From a virus: a stretch of DNA of 64,000 nt. Location of the stretch: IMG/VR virus record IMGVR_UViG_3300044826_000112; one strand, written 5' to 3'. Positions 11,606 through 35,170 of this stretch are shown piece by piece (the stretch's first letter is position 1; every line of letters starts with the position of its first letter). The notes under the pieces were generated by a model, which saw only the letters and a list, made by a program, of their open reading frames with translations, was not told the DNA's origin and ran no database searches. The position numbers and the translations under genes are program-made.

Positions 11606-12142
11606 TTACTTTCTCCCAGTTTGCTGGGACATCATAGGGATGTCCTTCATGTCAGAAGACTTGGACGAACCGAAGTAGTAGTTCAGGATAGTTGTCCACG
11701 CCGTGCCTAGCGAACCTAAAAGGATGTTCAGCACGTTTAGCATTGTACCCTCGACCTTCACGAAGATCAGGGTGAACAGGATACCAAAGAACCCTACTGT
11801 AACGGCCCCGGCAAGAGCACGGGGAGTCCAGTCTCGTAGTACGATCTCGCGTTGACGAGCGTCGGAACGATCGGCGAGATACATACCAGTTTCCTTAATG
11901 CCAAGCTCCTTCATCTTGACCTTGAAGTCGTTGTCTAGCTCCTTCATCTTGGTCAGAACTGCGGGATCACCCGTCTGAACAAGCTTCTCGAGCTTAGCTT
12001 CCAACTGGTCTTGAGTATCGCCTTCTGTGTCTCCTAGGAGACTGTCAGCGAGGAACTTAGTAGCCACGCCAGCAAGAGGACCACCAAGGGCAGTCCCCAG
12101 AGCTGGAGCGACAGTTTTAACCATGTCTCTCCATTCAAACAC
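11606..12142 (-). CDS. Putative holin (3TM/GTA-type)
   Basis: APALGTALGGP N-terminus, DRSDARQRE, two C-terminal TM segments, YYFGSS; adjacent to endolysin. Confidence 0.75.
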   Translation of the reverse strand: MFEWRDMVKTVAPALGTALGGPLAGVATKFLADSLLGDTEGDTQDQLEAKLEKLVQTGDPAVLTKMKELDNDFKVKMKELGIKETGMYLADRSDARQREIVLRDWTPRALAGAVTVGFFGILFTLIFVKVEGTMLNVLNILLGSLGTAWTTILNYYFGSSKSSDMKDIPMMSQQTGRK

Positions 12143-12500
12143 TGAATACCTCTACTACAGGCCCTCTTTGCTCAGTACTTTGATGGACAAGAGCCTTGAA
12201 GCTCTTCTTCATCGTCTCCATCGTACGCAGCAGCTGTTCCTTACTGTCGTACGCCACCGACATCTCCGAGTGTCGAACCAGCCGAGAGCCAAAACCGGAA
12301 GCGGGTTTGTTCGGATTGTACAGAGGATACTTGCCTAGCTCGTCCAGGTAGCACAGAGTCTGGTACTCTCCTAAGGTGCCATCTTCCTTGCGTTCGTGCA
12401 GAAAGATGTCCTTGGACACTTCAGACCCGTCACCTACCCGGGCCTTCAGTGTGTACTTGCCTCTCACGAGCTCATGTGTCAGCTCAAGAGTATTAGGCAT
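12135..12500 (-). CDS. Hypothetical virion-cluster protein
   Basis: ATG 12500 after GGAG. Confidence 0.65.
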   Translation of the reverse strand: MPNTLELTHELVRGKYTLKARVGDGSEVSKDIFLHERKEDGTLGEYQTLCYLDELGKYPLYNPNKPASGFGSRLVRHSEMSVAYDSKEQLLRTMETMKKSFKALVHQSTEQRGPVVEVFSV

Positions 12501-28323: not shown

Positions 28324-29955
28324 TCACTCAGTGTAGGTGAAATCGCCTGTCAGGTACTGGTATCCCACGTTCCCGAACACGACCGCATGCATCCAATCGT
28401 CCGGCTCATCCGGGTGGTGACGGTACACACGTTTACCTACCATCGTCTCCTCTTCGAAGACGCTCAGGGCATCTTTCCAGTAGCCTTCGGTCAGCTCCCA
28501 GGACGGGCACATGAAACGATCGGCACCAAGACGCCACTTCATCATTACGTTGTCGATTGCTTGAGTACGGTCTGCAGCCAGGAATTGGCCGTTAGAGTCC
28601 CAACGCAGTCGCTTACCAGCCGACACGTACTGTACCATGATAACCTTATCATGACCCAGTTCTTTCTGCATCAGCTGACCTTGAAGAACACCGACCCCGC
28701 GGTCGGAAGCTACCATGCTGGCGTTCCAGCGACGTGCGATTTCACATACGCTGGCGACTTGATCAAGAATGTGGATTCCCTGCATCTTCCGAGACTCCAG
28801 CAGGTAGCACTTGCCATTATAGTCGTATCCGAGCACAACTGCGACTGTATATGACTTCTCACTACCGGTAACCGACCAGTCCACACCAACGACAGTTGTC
28901 TGGATGGTTGGCAGGATAGCCTTGCTGACTTCATCAAGCGGCTCACCTTTAGCTAGTGCCAGGCCGGGCCATTGCTTCCAGGTATCTACGCAGCACTTCA
29001 GAGCTTCACTCATGGACAGGGACTTACCTGACAAGTCTGTAGCAAGCCCGAACACTTCGTTCGCCAGAGTAGCTGGGGTGTACAGACCGCCTTCCTGTGC
29101 GGAGATCACTTTGTCATACAGACGCGGCCAACGCTTAGGAACACAGTTAGCACCGATAACAAGCTGCGGCAGGTGGAAACCTACGACCTTCTTGATGGTT
29201 GGTCTAGTAGATACCCAAGTACCCTTGTTCACGTCGATGAACTTACCGCACTTAACGCAAGTAGGGCCATCTGGGTGAGAGCAGATCTTAACGCATGTGT
29301 CATAGTCGCCCGGGATGTTCCAATGGTTGCAGTGAGTGCACTTCATGGCCCATTCAAGTTGGTTACTACGAAGCCAAAGCTGCTCGAGAGTGTTCGAGAC
29401 TGACTTACTGGTGCCGGCCATAACTTTGAAGCCATGGTCAGAGGCGTTAAGGATTTCGAAGATTGGTGGTAGGGCATCGAAGGAGATGTCCTGTACTTCG
29501 TCTACAGTCAGAAGGTCCGCCATGATACCACGAATACGGTCCGCATCAGATTCAGTCTGAGCGTAGGACAGGTAAATCGTGGAGCCGTTGGAGAAGCTCT
29601 TTTCGTAAACGTTACGGGAAGTACCGGTGGAGCGGAAGTACTTCTTCACCAAAGGGCTGTCCATGAAGCTATCCAGATAGGCGTTCGAGAAACGCTTGGC
29701 CTGAATCTGGAATGGTGCAATGTACAGCGAGTTGAAGTACGGCAACGCAATACTCTTAGACACCAAGCGGCCACCGAGAGATACGGACTTACCGATCTGA
29801 CGGCCAGCCTTGAACACCATCAACTCCGGGTCGATGTCATAGATCGCCCGGAAGGGTTCGTACTGGTCGAATCGTAGCGGATATCCCTTCAGCTCCAGCA
29901 GGGATGCTGCTAGCTGTGAGGCCGTGGCGATACGAACGCTTTTCTGTTTAATCAT
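28324..29955 (-). CDS. terL: Terminase large subunit (GpA-like)
   Basis: KAGRQIGKS Walker A, LLTVDEVQD Walker B, CTHC/CVKC Zn motifs, VVGVDW and PDDWMHA nuclease motifs. Confidence 0.9.
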   Translation of the reverse strand: MIKQKSVRIATASQLAASLLELKGYPLRFDQYEPFRAIYDIDPELMVFKAGRQIGKSVSLGGRLVSKSIALPYFNSLYIAPFQIQAKRFSNAYLDSFMDSPLVKKYFRSTGTSRNVYEKSFSNGSTIYLSYAQTESDADRIRGIMADLLTVDEVQDISFDALPPIFEILNASDHGFKVMAGTSKSVSNTLEQLWLRSNQLEWAMKCTHCNHWNIPGDYDTCVKICSHPDGPTCVKCGKFIDVNKGTWVSTRPTIKKVVGFHLPQLVIGANCVPKRWPRLYDKVISAQEGGLYTPATLANEVFGLATDLSGKSLSMSEALKCCVDTWKQWPGLALAKGEPLDEVSKAILPTIQTTVVGVDWSVTGSEKSYTVAVVLGYDYNGKCYLLESRKMQGIHILDQVASVCEIARRWNASMVASDRGVGVLQGQLMQKELGHDKVIMVQYVSAGKRLRWDSNGQFLAADRTQAIDNVMMKWRLGADRFMCPSWELTEGYWKDALSVFEEETMVGKRVYRHHPDEPDDWMHAVVFGNVGYQYLTGDFTYTE

Positions 29956-30057
29956 TAGGGTTCTCCTTGATTACTGATTATAGTTTAAATCCAGAGATTT
30001 CGTTATAGTCATAGCTAAAAATAGATTGGATAAAGTTTCAACATTTTGAAAACCCCT

Positions 30058-30076
30058 GGTATAATAACTGTGTAGG
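30058..30076 (+). promoter_or_regulatory. Promoter motif for the Ubl operon
   Basis: TGGTATAATAACTGTGTAGG (extended -10 TGnTATAAT), similar to 1810 (GGTATAAGTACTGTGTAGG). Confidence 0.65.
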
Positions 30077-30135
30077 CAAGTACGCTACGCTTACACATTT
30101 ACCGAACCCAAATCATATCTTTTAGGAGAAATGCC

Positions 30136-30516
30136 ATGTCTATTACCTCTACCGTAGTTAAGATCCAAGGCCAAGCCGATGTAACCCTGCCGCTGGTTCT
30201 GACCGCTCAGGAAGTCATCGCCCAGATGACCAGCCAGGATCTGAACGGTATGAACAACAGCACTTCCGAGTCCGGCTCCGTGCGTACCATCACCTTCACC
30301 AAGCGTACCGGTACCAAGGGCGCCGAGATCACCAGCACCGTGCTGAAGATCGAAGGCTACTCCGACGTGACCCTGCCGATGGCCCTGACCCTGGAGTCTG
30401 CTCGTGAGCAGTACCGCTCCGTGGATCTGTCCGGCTACAACGCCAACGTGACCGAAGACGGCTCTGTCCGTACTCTGTCCTTCACCAAGCGTACTGGTAC
30501 CAAAGGTAACGATTAA
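30136..30516 (+). CDS. Tandem di-ubiquitin-like protein (PRTRC protein C-like), two 62-aa units each ending FTKRTGTKG
   Basis: Internal duplication, 36/62 identical by manual alignment; AGGAG RBS; strongly biased codons; operon with E2-like, JAB and E1 genes. Confidence 0.8.
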   Translation: MSITSTVVKIQGQADVTLPLVLTAQEVIAQMTSQDLNGMNNSTSESGSVRTITFTKRTGTKGAEITSTVLKIEGYSDVTLPMALTLESAREQYRSVDLSGYNANVTEDGSVRTLSFTKRTGTKGND

Positions 30517-30542
30517 GTTACCTCTGGCCGGTGCCAAAAACG

Positions 30543-30569
30543 GGGAGCCTTCGGGCTCCCTATTTTTTT
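30543..30569 (+). terminator. Rho-independent terminator after the Ubl gene
   Basis: GGGAGCC-TTCG-GGCTCCC-TATTTTTTT. Confidence 0.85.
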
Positions 30570-30590
30570 AGTCTCTGCAGAGAGGTTTCT

Positions 30591-31772
30591 ATGTACTTCT
30601 GCTATACGAAAGAGTTTGATATTAGCAGAGCAAGAGCTAACGGAGTTCCTCGGATCAGCAGCGTATCTCTGGCTACCTTCGGCAGCTGGCAGGTATCTCG
30701 CACCCCATCCCCAGAGCACTACGGATTCATCAACTCGCCATCACTTGAAGAAGGTCTTAAAGACTTCCTCAATTATGGCTTTGAGGAACTTCGTAAGGTT
30801 GAGTTCACAGACTTAGCCGACGGGGAAGTAGAGAACTTCCAACGGATGATTGCGATTGACATCCAGAACATCTGTAAGGAGTTCTTACAACAGTCTGATG
30901 ATAGCGGTTGTTTTTCAATAATCAACGTGATTCAGACGGCACTGAACGACCTGTACGAAAAACTTGGAGTATCCAGCGGGCCATTCATCATCTCACACCC
31001 TCCGGTAACTACTGGAGCCCTGCGAGATTTGGTTCGTGGAATTATCTCCAACGCATCTACTGGTATGCGTAAGTTCTTTCCTCCGCGTATTGCGTCGGAA
31101 ACTACCATGCAGACCTGCCGTCCAATGATCAACACGCATCGCTTCGAGAGCTCAGAAGGATTTCAGCATTCCATCATCAAATCGCTGCGTCATGGCCCTA
31201 CTTTGGAAGCCTTAGAATATGTCGGTGAAGATGATGTAATCTCGCTGAACGGGTTCGAAATCGATCTCGATGATACTCCGCTGACTCGCCGATATGTGCG
31301 GTTCATCCAGCATTTGGCACATAAATACTCCCCGTATCGCCTGCAGGTTCGCCTGCATAGCCAATCCAGGAGTATTCGTATAATGCCACTCATCGAGCAG
31401 GATTACATTATCGAGGCAGCGTTCGAACGCTTCCGCGGTCACATCCCTTGTGAGTTGCCGGAAGATCTTCCTTTAGAAGACAAATTGGTCTTGAGCTTTA
31501 TGGTCATCTCTCAGATGAACCTAGCTCCGCGGTGGCCAATAACTATCACAGACGCGGACTACCACGAGTACAACCGTGCTGCTATGGTAGAACGCCTGAG
31601 TCGTGTAGGCACTGAGGTTAATCTCACACCTATAGATATGACTCATATCTTCAACCACATCATGCCCCATCTGGTGGAGGTAATATGGTCCATAGGCAAG
31701 CTGAAATGGACGCACTTGCAATCAACTTCGCTGAACTTCCCGGAATTGGCGACGTTTACGCAGAACGCATAG
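30591..31772 (+). CDS. Hypothetical protein of the Ubl operon
   Basis: ATG 30591 after AGAGG (the longer track start runs through the terminator); 393 aa; no motif recognised. Confidence 0.7.
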   Translation: MYFCYTKEFDISRARANGVPRISSVSLATFGSWQVSRTPSPEHYGFINSPSLEEGLKDFLNYGFEELRKVEFTDLADGEVENFQRMIAIDIQNICKEFLQQSDDSGCFSIINVIQTALNDLYEKLGVSSGPFIISHPPVTTGALRDLVRGIISNASTGMRKFFPPRIASETTMQTCRPMINTHRFESSEGFQHSIIKSLRHGPTLEALEYVGEDDVISLNGFEIDLDDTPLTRRYVRFIQHLAHKYSPYRLQVRLHSQSRSIRIMPLIEQDYIIEAAFERFRGHIPCELPEDLPLEDKLVLSFMVISQMNLAPRWPITITDADYHEYNRAAMVERLSRVGTEVNLTPIDMTHIFNHIMPHLVEVIWSIGKLKWTHLQSTSLNFPELATFTQNA

Positions 31773-31963
31773 GTCAGGCTATCGATGATATGGTCTCTCG
31801 CATTGGGGGTATCAACTTCGAGGATCGTGCGTATGTCCATGCGTTATCTATCAATCACATCAGACAGCGTCGTAACGTGCAGATCAACCGGGTCATACCG
31901 GTAGAGCAGCGTTTGAACTTCCGGGCCTACCGTCCGGTAATGTCTGGCATCGTTTTCATCTGA
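31706..31963 (+). CDS. Small hypothetical protein of the Ubl operon
   Basis: ORF fills the gap before the E2-like gene; start at 31685 or 31706. Confidence 0.55.
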   Translation: MDALAINFAELPGIGDVYAERIGQAIDDMVSRIGGINFEDRAYVHALSINHIRQRRNVQINRVIPVEQRLNFRAYRPVMSGIVFI

Positions 31964-31970
31964 GGTATCT

Positions 31971-32648
31971 ATGATCGTAGAACTCAAACCCAACGGGGTC
32001 CTCGTGGACAATGGCCTCGGTGGCAAGAAGGTCATTTCATATGAATCCTTCATCGCCGAAATTGCCAAGATGGCAACTGAAGATACTGCCGCTATGGTGC
32101 GTACCTTAGGTCTGCCGGAGGGTGCATATGTGCTGGCTCAGAATGGTCGTGAAGCGACTATCGGCATGTACTACCCCTCTCGTCGTGCCACTCTGGACTT
32201 CAGCGGTACCAAATTCAAGGACGTCCTGTTGCCCAACGTGGTAATCATGGTCGGCCTTACCAACTTCGGCGTAGACGGTGACTTTGCCATCCTGGATGGC
32301 ATTCACTGGTTCTGTACCGATCTCCCTCTGGCGATCATGCCGCGGGTTACTTTCCGTAGCCTGAATGATCTGCCAGAAGGCCTTGCTGGTCACGTATGGT
32401 GCCTGCCGTTCCCCAATATGTATTCGGGGATGGGCTGCTCCATGTGTACTGGCAGCAACAGCTTCATTAGCCGCTTCCCAGATAACCAACTGGCAGGCAT
32501 CTCCTCTTACTATAACGATCTGTTCATCGGTAGTCGCTTTAACAACGACTTGGGCCAGTGGATGATTGAGAATGGCAGAGGCTGGCCTGAATGGTTGCGT
32601 GAACTGGCGGCTGCTGAAGAATTTCCCTACAATAGACTGCGGAGTTAA
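31971..32648 (+). CDS. Prokaryotic E2-like protein (PRTRC protein B / Prok-E2_D-like)
   Basis: YYPSRR..L.F, LPNVVI, PFPNMY....MCTG with candidate catalytic Cys, F..SRFNNDL. Confidence 0.75.
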   Translation: MIVELKPNGVLVDNGLGGKKVISYESFIAEIAKMATEDTAAMVRTLGLPEGAYVLAQNGREATIGMYYPSRRATLDFSGTKFKDVLLPNVVIMVGLTNFGVDGDFAILDGIHWFCTDLPLAIMPRVTFRSLNDLPEGLAGHVWCLPFPNMYSGMGCSMCTGSNSFISRFPDNQLAGISSYYNDLFIGSRFNNDLGQWMIENGRGWPEWLRELAAAEEFPYNRLRS

Positions 32649-32653
32649 GTCTG

Positions 32654-34024
32654 ATGATCAATATCACTCTGTTCGAATCCCTGGTAACCGAGCGTGACTT
32701 CCTGGATAAGAAGTTCCCGGACCATCACAACGTGATCAACGTACTGGCAAACGATGGCAAGCTCTACCGCTACCATCGCTATGCCGGTGAGCGTGAGCTC
32801 CTGACGAAGATCGCCGAAACCCCCATCCGTTTCGTCGATAAGACTCAGCTCGTAGAGCGTCGTCAAATCGTGCCGGGCGGAGTGCGTGTTCCGATGCAGC
32901 TGTTGAAAGACATCGAGAACTTCTTCCGTGCCTTCATGATCAAGAACGTGACCTCCGCTGCCGGGTATCGCCCGGGCCACGGTGACTACGAGGCTATGGC
33001 CTTGATCCTGTACAACCTGGATACACAGCAGTATCGCGTATCCATCCCTACCCAGAAAGTCTCCAAAGCATCTGTGTCCTATGACATCGATGACAAGGCT
33101 GACAACGAGATCGTGGTAGTGGATATCCACAGCCACAACTCTATGGGTGCCTTCTTCTCCGGTGTGGATGATCGTGATGATCGCTCCGGTGCTTGGGTGA
33201 CGGGCGTACTGGGTAAATTGGATCAGCCAGAGTTCGCCTCGGTATGGCGTTTCAACGCCGGTGCTACCAAGGTTCAGCTGACCATCGCTGACATCTTCGA
33301 AACCCCGACCATCACCGCTAACCCGGTTGATCAGGCCTGGATGGACAAGGTGCAAGTAGGCTACTCCAGCTACGGTGGTACTCCGTACTACCAGCGTCCG
33401 GTAGGCGGTGCCCAAGTGGGTAACTCCAAAGTAGGGGGTGCCCAGGTGGGAAACCACAACTTTCAATCCGAAGCCAAAAGCCCCCGCATCTACGGTGCTG
33501 AGGTTGGAGGACTTGGTGGGGGAAAATCACAAGGGGGGTTCGGAAAAAACCCAGCTGGATTCCCCGTTGAAAGTGACTTCTTCGACCAAGAAGCCTACGA
33601 AGAACTCATGGACATGCTGGGTGTCGACGGCTTGGGCTCACGCCTGGACTTGGATGACGACATCCCTTTCGAGGAGGACGAAGTAGTTGGTGAGGCCGAT
33701 GCTTCTCTCGTCCGTCAAATTGACAAACTTCTCGGCCGAATCGAAAACGAGCACGCCTATGGGCTCGTAGTGGAGAACATCGTTCAGTACGTGACCGATG
33801 AAGCTGTCCTGGTGGATATGGCGGGAGAAGTAGTAGACCGCATCACCGATGGCATCCCGGATCTGACTGAGCGTGGTATCTACGTCATCACCGATCCTGA
33901 GCAAGTAGTAGATGCTATGGCCGACATGTGCGGCGAGTATCTGCATGCTGATCAAATTGCTACTGCGTTCAATGAGATCTCAGAAGCTCAGGGTGTCCTC
34001 TACACATACACTCCCAAGGAGTAA
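32654..34024 (+). CDS. JAB/MPN+ metalloprotease (PRTRC protein A-like) with Gly-rich linker and acidic C-terminal domain
   Basis: YEAMA Glu, IPTQKVS, VVDIHSHNSMGAFFSGVDDRDD JAMM motif, GVLGKLD. Confidence 0.9.
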   Translation: MINITLFESLVTERDFLDKKFPDHHNVINVLANDGKLYRYHRYAGERELLTKIAETPIRFVDKTQLVERRQIVPGGVRVPMQLLKDIENFFRAFMIKNVTSAAGYRPGHGDYEAMALILYNLDTQQYRVSIPTQKVSKASVSYDIDDKADNEIVVVDIHSHNSMGAFFSGVDDRDDRSGAWVTGVLGKLDQPEFASVWRFNAGATKVQLTIADIFETPTITANPVDQAWMDKVQVGYSSYGGTPYYQRPVGGAQVGNSKVGGAQVGNHNFQSEAKSPRIYGAEVGGLGGGKSQGGFGKNPAGFPVESDFFDQEAYEELMDMLGVDGLGSRLDLDDDIPFEEDEVVGEADASLVRQIDKLLGRIENEHAYGLVVENIVQYVTDEAVLVDMAGEVVDRITDGIPDLTERGIYVITDPEQVVDAMADMCGEYLHADQIATAFNEISEAQGVLYTYTPKE

Positions 34025-34027
34025 AAG

Positions 34028-35170
34028 ATGTTTCACACTCGATTCAACCGGATTGTGTCGAATGTGATCATCGTAGGTTGCGGCGGGACTGGTTCCCGCC
34101 TCATTCCTATGGTGGCACAGTTCATGAAAAGCTGCCCGGCTATCCTCGATCCGTTCATCACCCTGATCGACGGGGATACAGTGGAGATGAAGAATCTGGC
34201 TCGTCAGAACTTCATCAAGCCGGATATCGGCCGTCACAAGTCCGAAGTGCTGGCGGAGCGTTATGGCGGGGCTATCGAAATCCCCATCGTATCTATCCCG
34301 GAATACTACCAGTACTCCAAGTACAAGGACTTCCGCGGCTGGCTGCAGAACCACTACTCGAAGCTGGATCCGAACCTGGCCAACCGTTCTGTCGGTAGCC
34401 CGATCGTCTTCTTCGCAGTGGACTCTATGCAGGCACGGATGGAGATCTTAGCAGGCATCATGTACTCTCGCTTCCGCAACCACACCTGGGCGTCTGTGAT
34501 GCCCATCATCGTGGATGCCGGTAACGAGAATACCTTCGGCCAGGTTAGCGTGTATCACGCGGCTGTCGTACCTGATGATTCCCACTACCTCCATCATCGC
34601 CATGTAGAAGAGTTCATTCGCAGCTTCAACTCTCTGAGCACCATCAAGAAGGGCTATGTTGGCGGCGATCTCAACTTCCCACTGCGTCCTGCTCCGGTAG
34701 ACATGCTGGTATCTGCCCTGGAGAACCCCTCCGAGGCTGACGTATCGTGTGCCGACTTGGATCAGACTGCTGCGATCAACGCTCAGATGGCTGTAGGTAT
34801 GTTCACTGCATTCCAGAACATCTGTCTGAACCACAAGATGACGATTCTGACTTCCTACTTCGATATTCATAATGGCAACAGTCAGACGAAGATCGATGAT
34901 TGGCTGCTGAATCTGCCGGAAGAGGATCCCTCTAAAGGTGCTCGGGTGACCGCTGAGCGTATCGCCAAGGCATTGAAGAAGGCCCGTGATGTGAAGACTT
35001 TGGATAATGATTCTTCTGAGATGTGCCGCCTCCTGGCGTCAGGCACGGTCGATATGGATATGACCATTATCCGTGATGCCCGTCAGGTAGCCCAAGCGGC
35101 TATCAAAGATGGATCTATCTCCAAGCGTAACTTGGAGTTGGAAGCTCTGCTTAACGGCAGGGCAGCATAA
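34028..35170 (+). CDS. ThiF/E1-like Ubl-activating enzyme
   Basis: IIVGCGGTGS, DGDTVEMKNLARQNF, AVDSMQAR, DAGNE..GQV, SCAD candidate catalytic Cys, IN.QMA. Confidence 0.92.
   Translation: MFHTRFNRIVSNVIIVGCGGTGSRLIPMVAQFMKSCPAILDPFITLIDGDTVEMKNLARQNFIKPDIGRHKSEVLAERYGGAIEIPIVSIPEYYQYSKYKDFRGWLQNHYSKLDPNLANRSVGSPIVFFAVDSMQARMEILAGIMYSRFRNHTWASVMPIIVDAGNENTFGQVSVYHAAVVPDDSHYLHHRHVEEFIRSFNSLSTIKKGYVGGDLNFPLRPAPVDMLVSALENPSEADVSCADLDQTAAINAQMAVGMFTAFQNICLNHKMTILTSYFDIHNGNSQTKIDDWLLNLPEEDPSKGARVTAERIAKALKKARDVKTLDNDSSEMCRLLASGTVDMDMTIIRDARQVAQAAIKDGSISKRNLELEALLNGRAA

Follow-up and report, generated by a model that had tools for sequence, protein, structure and literature searches.

A 175-kb phage genome encodes two small predicted ubiquitin-like (Ubl) units fused head to tail, each with its own conserved Gly tail, beside genes for E2-like, protease and E1-like proteins. 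Relatives carrying between one and five such units suggest a viral counterpart of the polyubiquitin gene, although cleavage has not been shown. The gene lies at positions 30136-30516 on the + strand of the window, a 64,000-nucleotide stretch of IMG/VR record IMGVR_UViG_3300044826_000112, a genome of 175,261 bp that CheckV rates as 98% complete. The open reading frame encodes 126 amino acids, of which unit 1 (30136-30321) and unit 2 (30322-30507) account for 62 each. BLASTP aligns the units without gaps with 36 of 60 residues identical, 46 of 60 positive and an E-value of 2e-25, which becomes 36/62 when the two unmatched N-terminal residues are counted, while nucleotide identity is 116/186; the repeat is far beyond chance. 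Both units end FTKRTGTKG, with G62 followed by AEITS, the start of unit 2, and G124 followed by an Asn-Asp cap and stop codon (30508-30516). Unit 2 has no internal start codon or ribosome-binding site, so neither Gly is free in the primary product. The features that the initial annotation had described at this locus were thus all confirmed.

The two-unit layout is conserved in seven metagenomic orthologues at 77-99% identity, and ND ends five of the six full-length orthologues P0001-P0006 (P numbers denote proteins recovered in the protein searches), with P0005 shown to carry it in its contig translation. The stretches AQEVIAQMTS and LESAREQYRS occupy residues 24-33 of their respective units, over the only predicted helix (24-30), and each version is kept in its own position in the orthologues. 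In this lineage the internal tail is at least as conserved as the terminal one, and dN/dS against the orthologue on metagenomic contig L002 (L numbers denote loci) is about 0.40 for unit 1 and 0.29 for unit 2, so that both are under purifying selection. The gene has several features of a strongly expressed monocistronic unit: a sigma-70-like promoter at 30038-30065 (TCAACA, 16 nt, TATAAT, with a TG extension), which matches 10 of 12 positions and is a consensus match only; a ribosome-binding site, AGGAGA, at 30124-30129, 6 nt before the ATG; a hairpin of 8 bp, 6 of them G-C, followed by a T run at 30542-30571, which resembles an intrinsic terminator and also reads as one on the - strand; and a GC3 of 0.73, compared with 0.55-0.66 in the four downstream genes.

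The Ubl gene is divergent from the large terminase (28324-29955, - strand) and is followed by four genes on the + strand. The first (30591-31772) encodes a 393-aa protein that gave no Pfam, PHROG, PADLOC or NCBIfam hit and no lead in the ESM Atlas, and whose homologues were found only in the close relatives L002 and L003. It sits in the position of PRTRC protein F on plasmids, where other cassettes carry unrelated genes of 199-273 aa plus a gene of about 95-115 aa; a variable slot like this could hold a target or a specificity factor. A 92-aa ORF (31685-31963) overlaps the end of this gene in another frame, where L002 has only a 43-aa called gene; whether it is a real gene was not examined. 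The next gene (31971-32648) encodes a 225-aa E2-like protein with an invariant P148-N149...M158-C159-x-G161 motif resembling the E2 "HPN...Cys" active site, and of five homologues three hit Prok-E2_D weakly (best E 4e-4) and three hit PRTRC_B weakly. The third (32654-34024) encodes a 456-aa JAB/JAMM metalloprotease (Prok-JAB, E 6e-7) with the full signature of E113, H159-x-H161, seven residues, S169, two residues and D172, invariant in 20 diverse sequences. Its C-terminal half of about 220 aa, which contains a Gly-rich repeat (GGAQVGNSKVGGAQVGN) and an acidic region, is poorly conserved between cassettes, and plasmid PRTRC protein A is only about 200 aa. The last (34028-35170) encodes a 380-aa ThiF-type E1-like adenylating enzyme (ThiF, E 1.8e-11). 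NCBIfam places the JAB nearest PRTRC system protein A (E 1.4e-18) and the E1 nearest the PRTRC ThiF protein (E 7e-16), both below the curated cut-offs. PHROGs and PADLOC gave nothing for the Ubl, E2-like or JAB proteins, and only the E1 hit generic E1-E2 models of PADLOC. A weak Reprolysin_4 Pfam hit (E 0.006, below cut-off) was dismissed as noise, and megablast of 8 kb against the phage collection found nothing.

The units are divergent members of the Prok_Ub (PF14454)/PRTRC system protein C (TIGR03738) lineage that do not reach the curated thresholds. The whole protein scores only 13.8 bits (E 0.048) against a TIGR03738 cut-off of 45.95, and Pfam shows no Prok_Ub hit for it. A profile of the ten units of this lineage was searched against 1.8 billion representative proteins, and recovered a family of proteins with one to five units once seven large repeat proteins that match only part of the profile (P0015, P0018, P0024, P0027, P0030, P0040 and P0046) had been excluded as unrelated; the two that were read are Ig-like and Calx-like repeat proteins. 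Of 47 family units, 8 match PRTRC_C (best E 3e-7) and 7 match Prok_Ub (best E 4e-6) at E below 1. Profile-profile comparison by hhalign of the family with PRTRC_C sequences gives 97.2% probability (E 4.4e-11) over 55 columns ending at the last Gly, and 90.3% for the profile of the window's lineage alone, although the PRTRC_C alignment has only four rows, one of which is a phage sequence. A phage single-unit member is 37-44% identical over its full length to annotated PRTRC protein C on 154 plasmids. Plasmid proteins of this family end LGTKG-stop and FGAKG-stop, matching the TGTKG of both window units, and across the 47 units G59 and K61 are invariant and G62 is nearly invariant.

With the 47-unit alignment, AlphaFold2 models unit 1 at pLDDT 89.9 as strand-strand-helix-strand-strand, with confidence dropping in the last residues of a loose tail. 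The top matches in a Foldseek-independent (VIA) structure search are mostly beta-grasp modifiers and sulfur carriers (MoaD, ubiquitin, SUMO, ISG15, FAT10, ThiS, TtuB, Urm1 and the bacterial Ubl 8tyz_B), but Z-scores of only 3.5-5.0, usual for so small a domain, are not decisive, and Foldseek against the PDB gave no hit at E 0.001 or better, so that assignment to the beta-grasp fold is left undecided by these comparisons. A model of the whole 126-aa protein made without an alignment was unusable (pLDDT 36.7), and packing of the two units against each other was not tested. Prediction of a complex between the JAB N-terminal 235 aa and the Ubl unit scored 0.09 against a mark of 0.32, which is used neither for nor against binding.

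The cassette is conserved and widespread in phages. A scan of IMG/VR seeded with the JAB rather than the Ubl returned 48 loci, and in all 24 with a close JAB (L007-L030) a family Ubl gene lies 2-3 kb upstream, followed by E2-like, JAB and E1 genes in the same order. The same holds for Vibrio phage D69 (L001) and the metagenomic contigs L002-L005, although in the five-unit cassette of L004 an HNH/AP2-type homing-endonuclease gene (11854-12378) is inserted between the JAB and E1 genes. A search of the 175-kb genome found no further Ubl unit, unit 2 itself scoring 77 bits against the family profile.

Ubl copy number across homologous cassettes, a comparison proposed in advance as a test of the precursor reading, was examined in 60 distinct family proteins. 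There is one unit in 29 proteins, two in 19, three in 7, four in 2 and five in 3. The G-x-K-G tail is intact in 49 of 51 internal units, the two exceptions each being one degenerate internal unit in the multi-unit proteins L030:3262-4350 (the same protein as P0012) and P0014, and in 59 of 60 terminal units, the exception, P0007, appearing to be a truncated or frameshifted fragment. Of the 59 proteins with an intact terminal tail, 31 stop exactly at the Gly, while 13 add one residue, 8 add two, 3 add three and 4 have longer extensions. The residue after the Gly is mostly A, N or S at both kinds of site (internal: A 24, N 9, S 8; terminal: A 9, N 8). Units are either directly abutted, as here, or separated by spacers of up to 55 residues that are often acidic. 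Identity between units of one protein ranges from 25% to 100%, and near-identical pairs occur in several unrelated proteins (L013, L023, P0016, P0021, L030, P0043 and L004), so duplications have arisen repeatedly and copy number is labile. The 60 proteins are not phylogenetically independent, so the counts describe a pattern and are not a statistical test, but it is the pattern expected if each unit is selected as a separate mature product with a free Gly, and it fits a polyubiquitin-type precursor better than a Bil/Bub-type multi-domain Ubl. A single-unit Ubl at L011:2913-3194, and in L012, ends KTGTKG-ARLL-KTGVKG-ASLFKRVVNFLIG, with a second, partial tail motif four residues after the first and then a 13-residue extension, and an annotated PRTRC protein C of 124 aa on Azonexus hydrophilus plasmid NZ_CP151407.1 (L055:5986-6360) has one unit ending AAGTKG followed by a 57-aa extension that is not Ubl-like, so blocked Gly residues also occur in plasmid cassettes.

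The interpretation offered in the initial annotation, that the operon's JAB cuts after each TKG to release two distinct Ubl paralogues that may act as different tags, is only partly supported: comparative evidence upholds a head-to-tail precursor with a blocked C-terminus, but not the enzymology or the tagging. What the analysis demonstrates is that each 62-aa unit is a complete copy of the family domain with its G-T-K-G tail, that the neighbouring enzymes keep their catalytic motifs, and that the genes are conserved together. We infer, with a probability of roughly 0.6, that the primary product is cut after G62 (G|A) and G124 (G|N), most probably by the cassette's JAMM protease, which would release two different 62-aa Ubls and the dipeptide ND. 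Each freed Gly would then be adenylated by the ThiF-type E1, passed to Cys159 of the E2-like protein and attached to targets that are not yet identified, an attachment that the JAB would also reverse. Precedent comes from BilC, a JAB of a related bacterial cassette that trims its Ubl BilA at Gly97|Ala98, cleaves a linear Ubl-GFP fusion and removes conjugates (bioRxiv 10.1101/2023.09.26.559546); there is no direct evidence of cleavage, of conjugation or of a target for the phage proteins. The JAB also accompanies Ubls that already end in a free Gly, so precursor processing cannot be its only role and its conserved function is more likely deconjugation, with processing as a second job. Because the Ubl gene has its own terminator, "the operon's JAB" denotes a conserved gene cluster rather than a proven single transcript; in this view the promoter, strong ribosome-binding site, codon bias and terminator fit a substrate made in large excess over its enzymes. 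The idea of two different tags rests only on the divergence over residues 24-33, where the units differ most, and on the positional conservation of each version, and is speculation.

The alternative that survives best, though we consider it unlikely, is an ISG15-like di-Ubl in which the units stay joined, only the ND cap is trimmed, the 124-aa protein is conjugated through G124, and the internal FTKRTGTKG serves as an inter-domain linker or docking motif. Multi-beta-grasp bacterial Ubls that act as whole proteins are well documented, as in the two-domain type I Bil Ubls and the Bil/Bub Ubl2 and Ubl3 proteins (PMC11601603), C-terminal trimming alone is what was shown for BilA, and two units that differ (59% identity) and are each conserved in a fixed order would also suit an integrated two-domain protein. 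Linkers may also be more than waste: in the three- to four-unit subfamily of phage D69 (L001:8624-9415, CDS VPHD69_0307; also P0011, P0013, P0014, P0020, P0026 and P0028) the spacer between units 1 and 2 is itself conserved, roughly (D/N)(I/V)N(I/V)xG(D/N)(L/V)x(I/V)N, and the last unit is a distinct, conserved type preceded by a long acidic spacer, so that these linkers may function as a recognition element or a released peptide. However, in ISG15 and the Bil/Bub multi-domain Ubls only the last domain carries the reactive tail, a point not checked in this analysis, whereas both window units and 49 of 51 internal units in the family keep it, and many relatives have a single unit that stops at that Gly. 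Several proteins carry 97-100% identical units, which argues for dosage rather than domain specialization, and spacers of 0 to 55 residues are hard to square with a fixed two-domain structure.

A role as sulfur carriers of the ThiS/MoaD/CysO type, with the E1 adenylating and thiocarboxylating the terminal Gly for synthesis of a small molecule and the JAB only trimming the carrier, as Mec+ and QbsD do, is very unlikely. The ThiF-family E1, the presence of MoaD, ThiS and TtuB among the nearest folds, and the JAB, E1 and ThiS/MoaD-like sulfur-assimilation clusters described by Iyer et al. 2006 are consistent with it, but the cassette always includes an E2-like protein with an invariant Cys, no rhodanese, cysteine desulfurase or biosynthetic gene lies next to it, Iyer et al. 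note that the E1s of these operon types never carry a rhodanese domain, and a strongly expressed gene with several carrier copies in a lytic-type phage genome is hard to explain by cofactor synthesis. Equally improbable is a structural or scaffolding protein only positionally linked to the E1 and JAB genes, its TGTKG motif having a role unrelated to conjugation: the gene does lie among virion genes with its own promoter and terminator, and no function has been shown for any PRTRC cassette in the literature searched, but it stays with E2, JAB and E1 in the same order in phages that share only about 30% identity and have otherwise different neighbourhoods, and it is homologous to plasmid PRTRC_C, which sits in the same cassette.

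Bacterial ubiquitin-like conjugation (CBASS Cap2/Cap3, Bil, Bub) has recently been shown to act in anti-phage defence, whereas the PRTRC/type 6d cassettes were predicted in 2006 and we found no functional study of them in the literature searched. The present finding shows that a diverged form of this cassette is common in large phages, with a modifier often encoded as a tandem array in which nearly every unit keeps the activating tail. Tandem Ub-like domains beside E1 and JAB genes, JAB pre-processing of a bacterial Ubl, and PRTRC genes in a prophage, where a 2026 preprint reports PRTRC protein B as a target of a diversity-generating retroelement, are already known; a PRTRC_C-type Ubl encoded as such an array, and recognition that these cassettes are common in large phages, were not found in searches for Prok_Ub, PRTRC and phage Ubl precursors, which reached few subscription journals and so do not prove novelty. 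If the array is processed, it would be the first polyubiquitin-like precursor outside eukaryotes of which we are aware and a case of convergent gene architecture. A bolder reading, possible but held at somewhat less than even odds, is that large phages carry a complete conjugation cassette of their own whose modifier gene has independently taken on the polyubiquitin layout, with one to five head-to-tail units released by the cassette's JAMM protease, identical repeats raising the dose and diverged repeats such as the two units here giving distinct tags from one transcript, attached to virion or host proteins during infection. The system offers a simple handle in a 126-aa substrate, a defined scissile bond and a neighbouring protease, and its targets would show why phages need protein tagging of their own.

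The closest known system is the PRTRC cassette of plasmids and ICEs (TIGR03735-03741), equal to operon type 6d of Iyer, Burroughs and Aravind 2006 (PMC1779556): a small Ubl with a conserved C-terminal Gly, an alpha-helical protein, an E2-like protein with a conserved Cys, a JAB and an E1. The Azonexus plasmid cassette reads E, C (Ubl), F, B (E2-like), A (JAB), ThiF, and from C onward the window has the same order, with sequence links for the Ubl, JAB, E1 and, weakly, the E2. The phage version differs in its tandem Ubl, the three plasmid proteins read here having one unit each, in an F-position protein that is not detectably related, in the long C-terminal extension of its JAB, and in the lack of a ParB-related gene, TIGR03734 giving no match at E 0.01 or better in the whole genome. 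Type 6d is also described as having an absolutely conserved His downstream of the E2 Cys and a JAB-N domain with conserved Arg and Trp; our E2 alignment has no invariant His and the JAB alignment has a nearly invariant R47 but no clear N-terminal Trp, observations that do not settle the matter, as the alignments were not made against the families of Iyer et al. All family scores are below the curated cut-offs.

Eukaryotic polyubiquitin genes (yeast UBI4, human UBB/UBC) likewise have head-to-tail units without a spacer, each ending in the Gly used for activation, with one or a few extra residues on the last, a copy number that varies between genomes, near-identical units in some genes, and a need for a deubiquitinase in maturation. 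There is no detectable sequence relation beyond the predicted beta-grasp fold, the phage tail is T-G-T-K-G rather than L-R-G-G, units within one gene can be strongly diverged, so that distinct products are possible, some relatives have long spacers, and the presumed protease is a JAMM enzyme encoded next door. The BilABCD system (Chambers et al., bioRxiv 10.1101/2023.09.26.559546) shares the gene order Ubl, E2, JAB, E1 and a Gly blocked by extra residues, but its Ubl family is different and Bil is a host anti-phage defence, whereas this cassette is carried by the phage. The Ubl2/Ubl3 proteins of Bil and Bub operons (Gong et al., PMC11601603) and the two to three tandem Ub-like domains of type 6e operons, which Iyer et al. 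called "reminiscent of poly-ubiquitin", also place several domains of the beta-grasp type, a fold only predicted for the phage units, in one polypeptide beside E1, E2 and peptidase genes, yet those proteins work as whole units that form dimers and Ca2+-dependent filaments. Finally, the Ub-like tail assembly protein I of phages lambda and T1, encoded next to the JAB-containing protein K, was predicted by Iyer et al. to be released by cleavage at a conserved Gly, but that system has no E1 or E2, a single Ubl fused to another domain, and a tail-assembly context.
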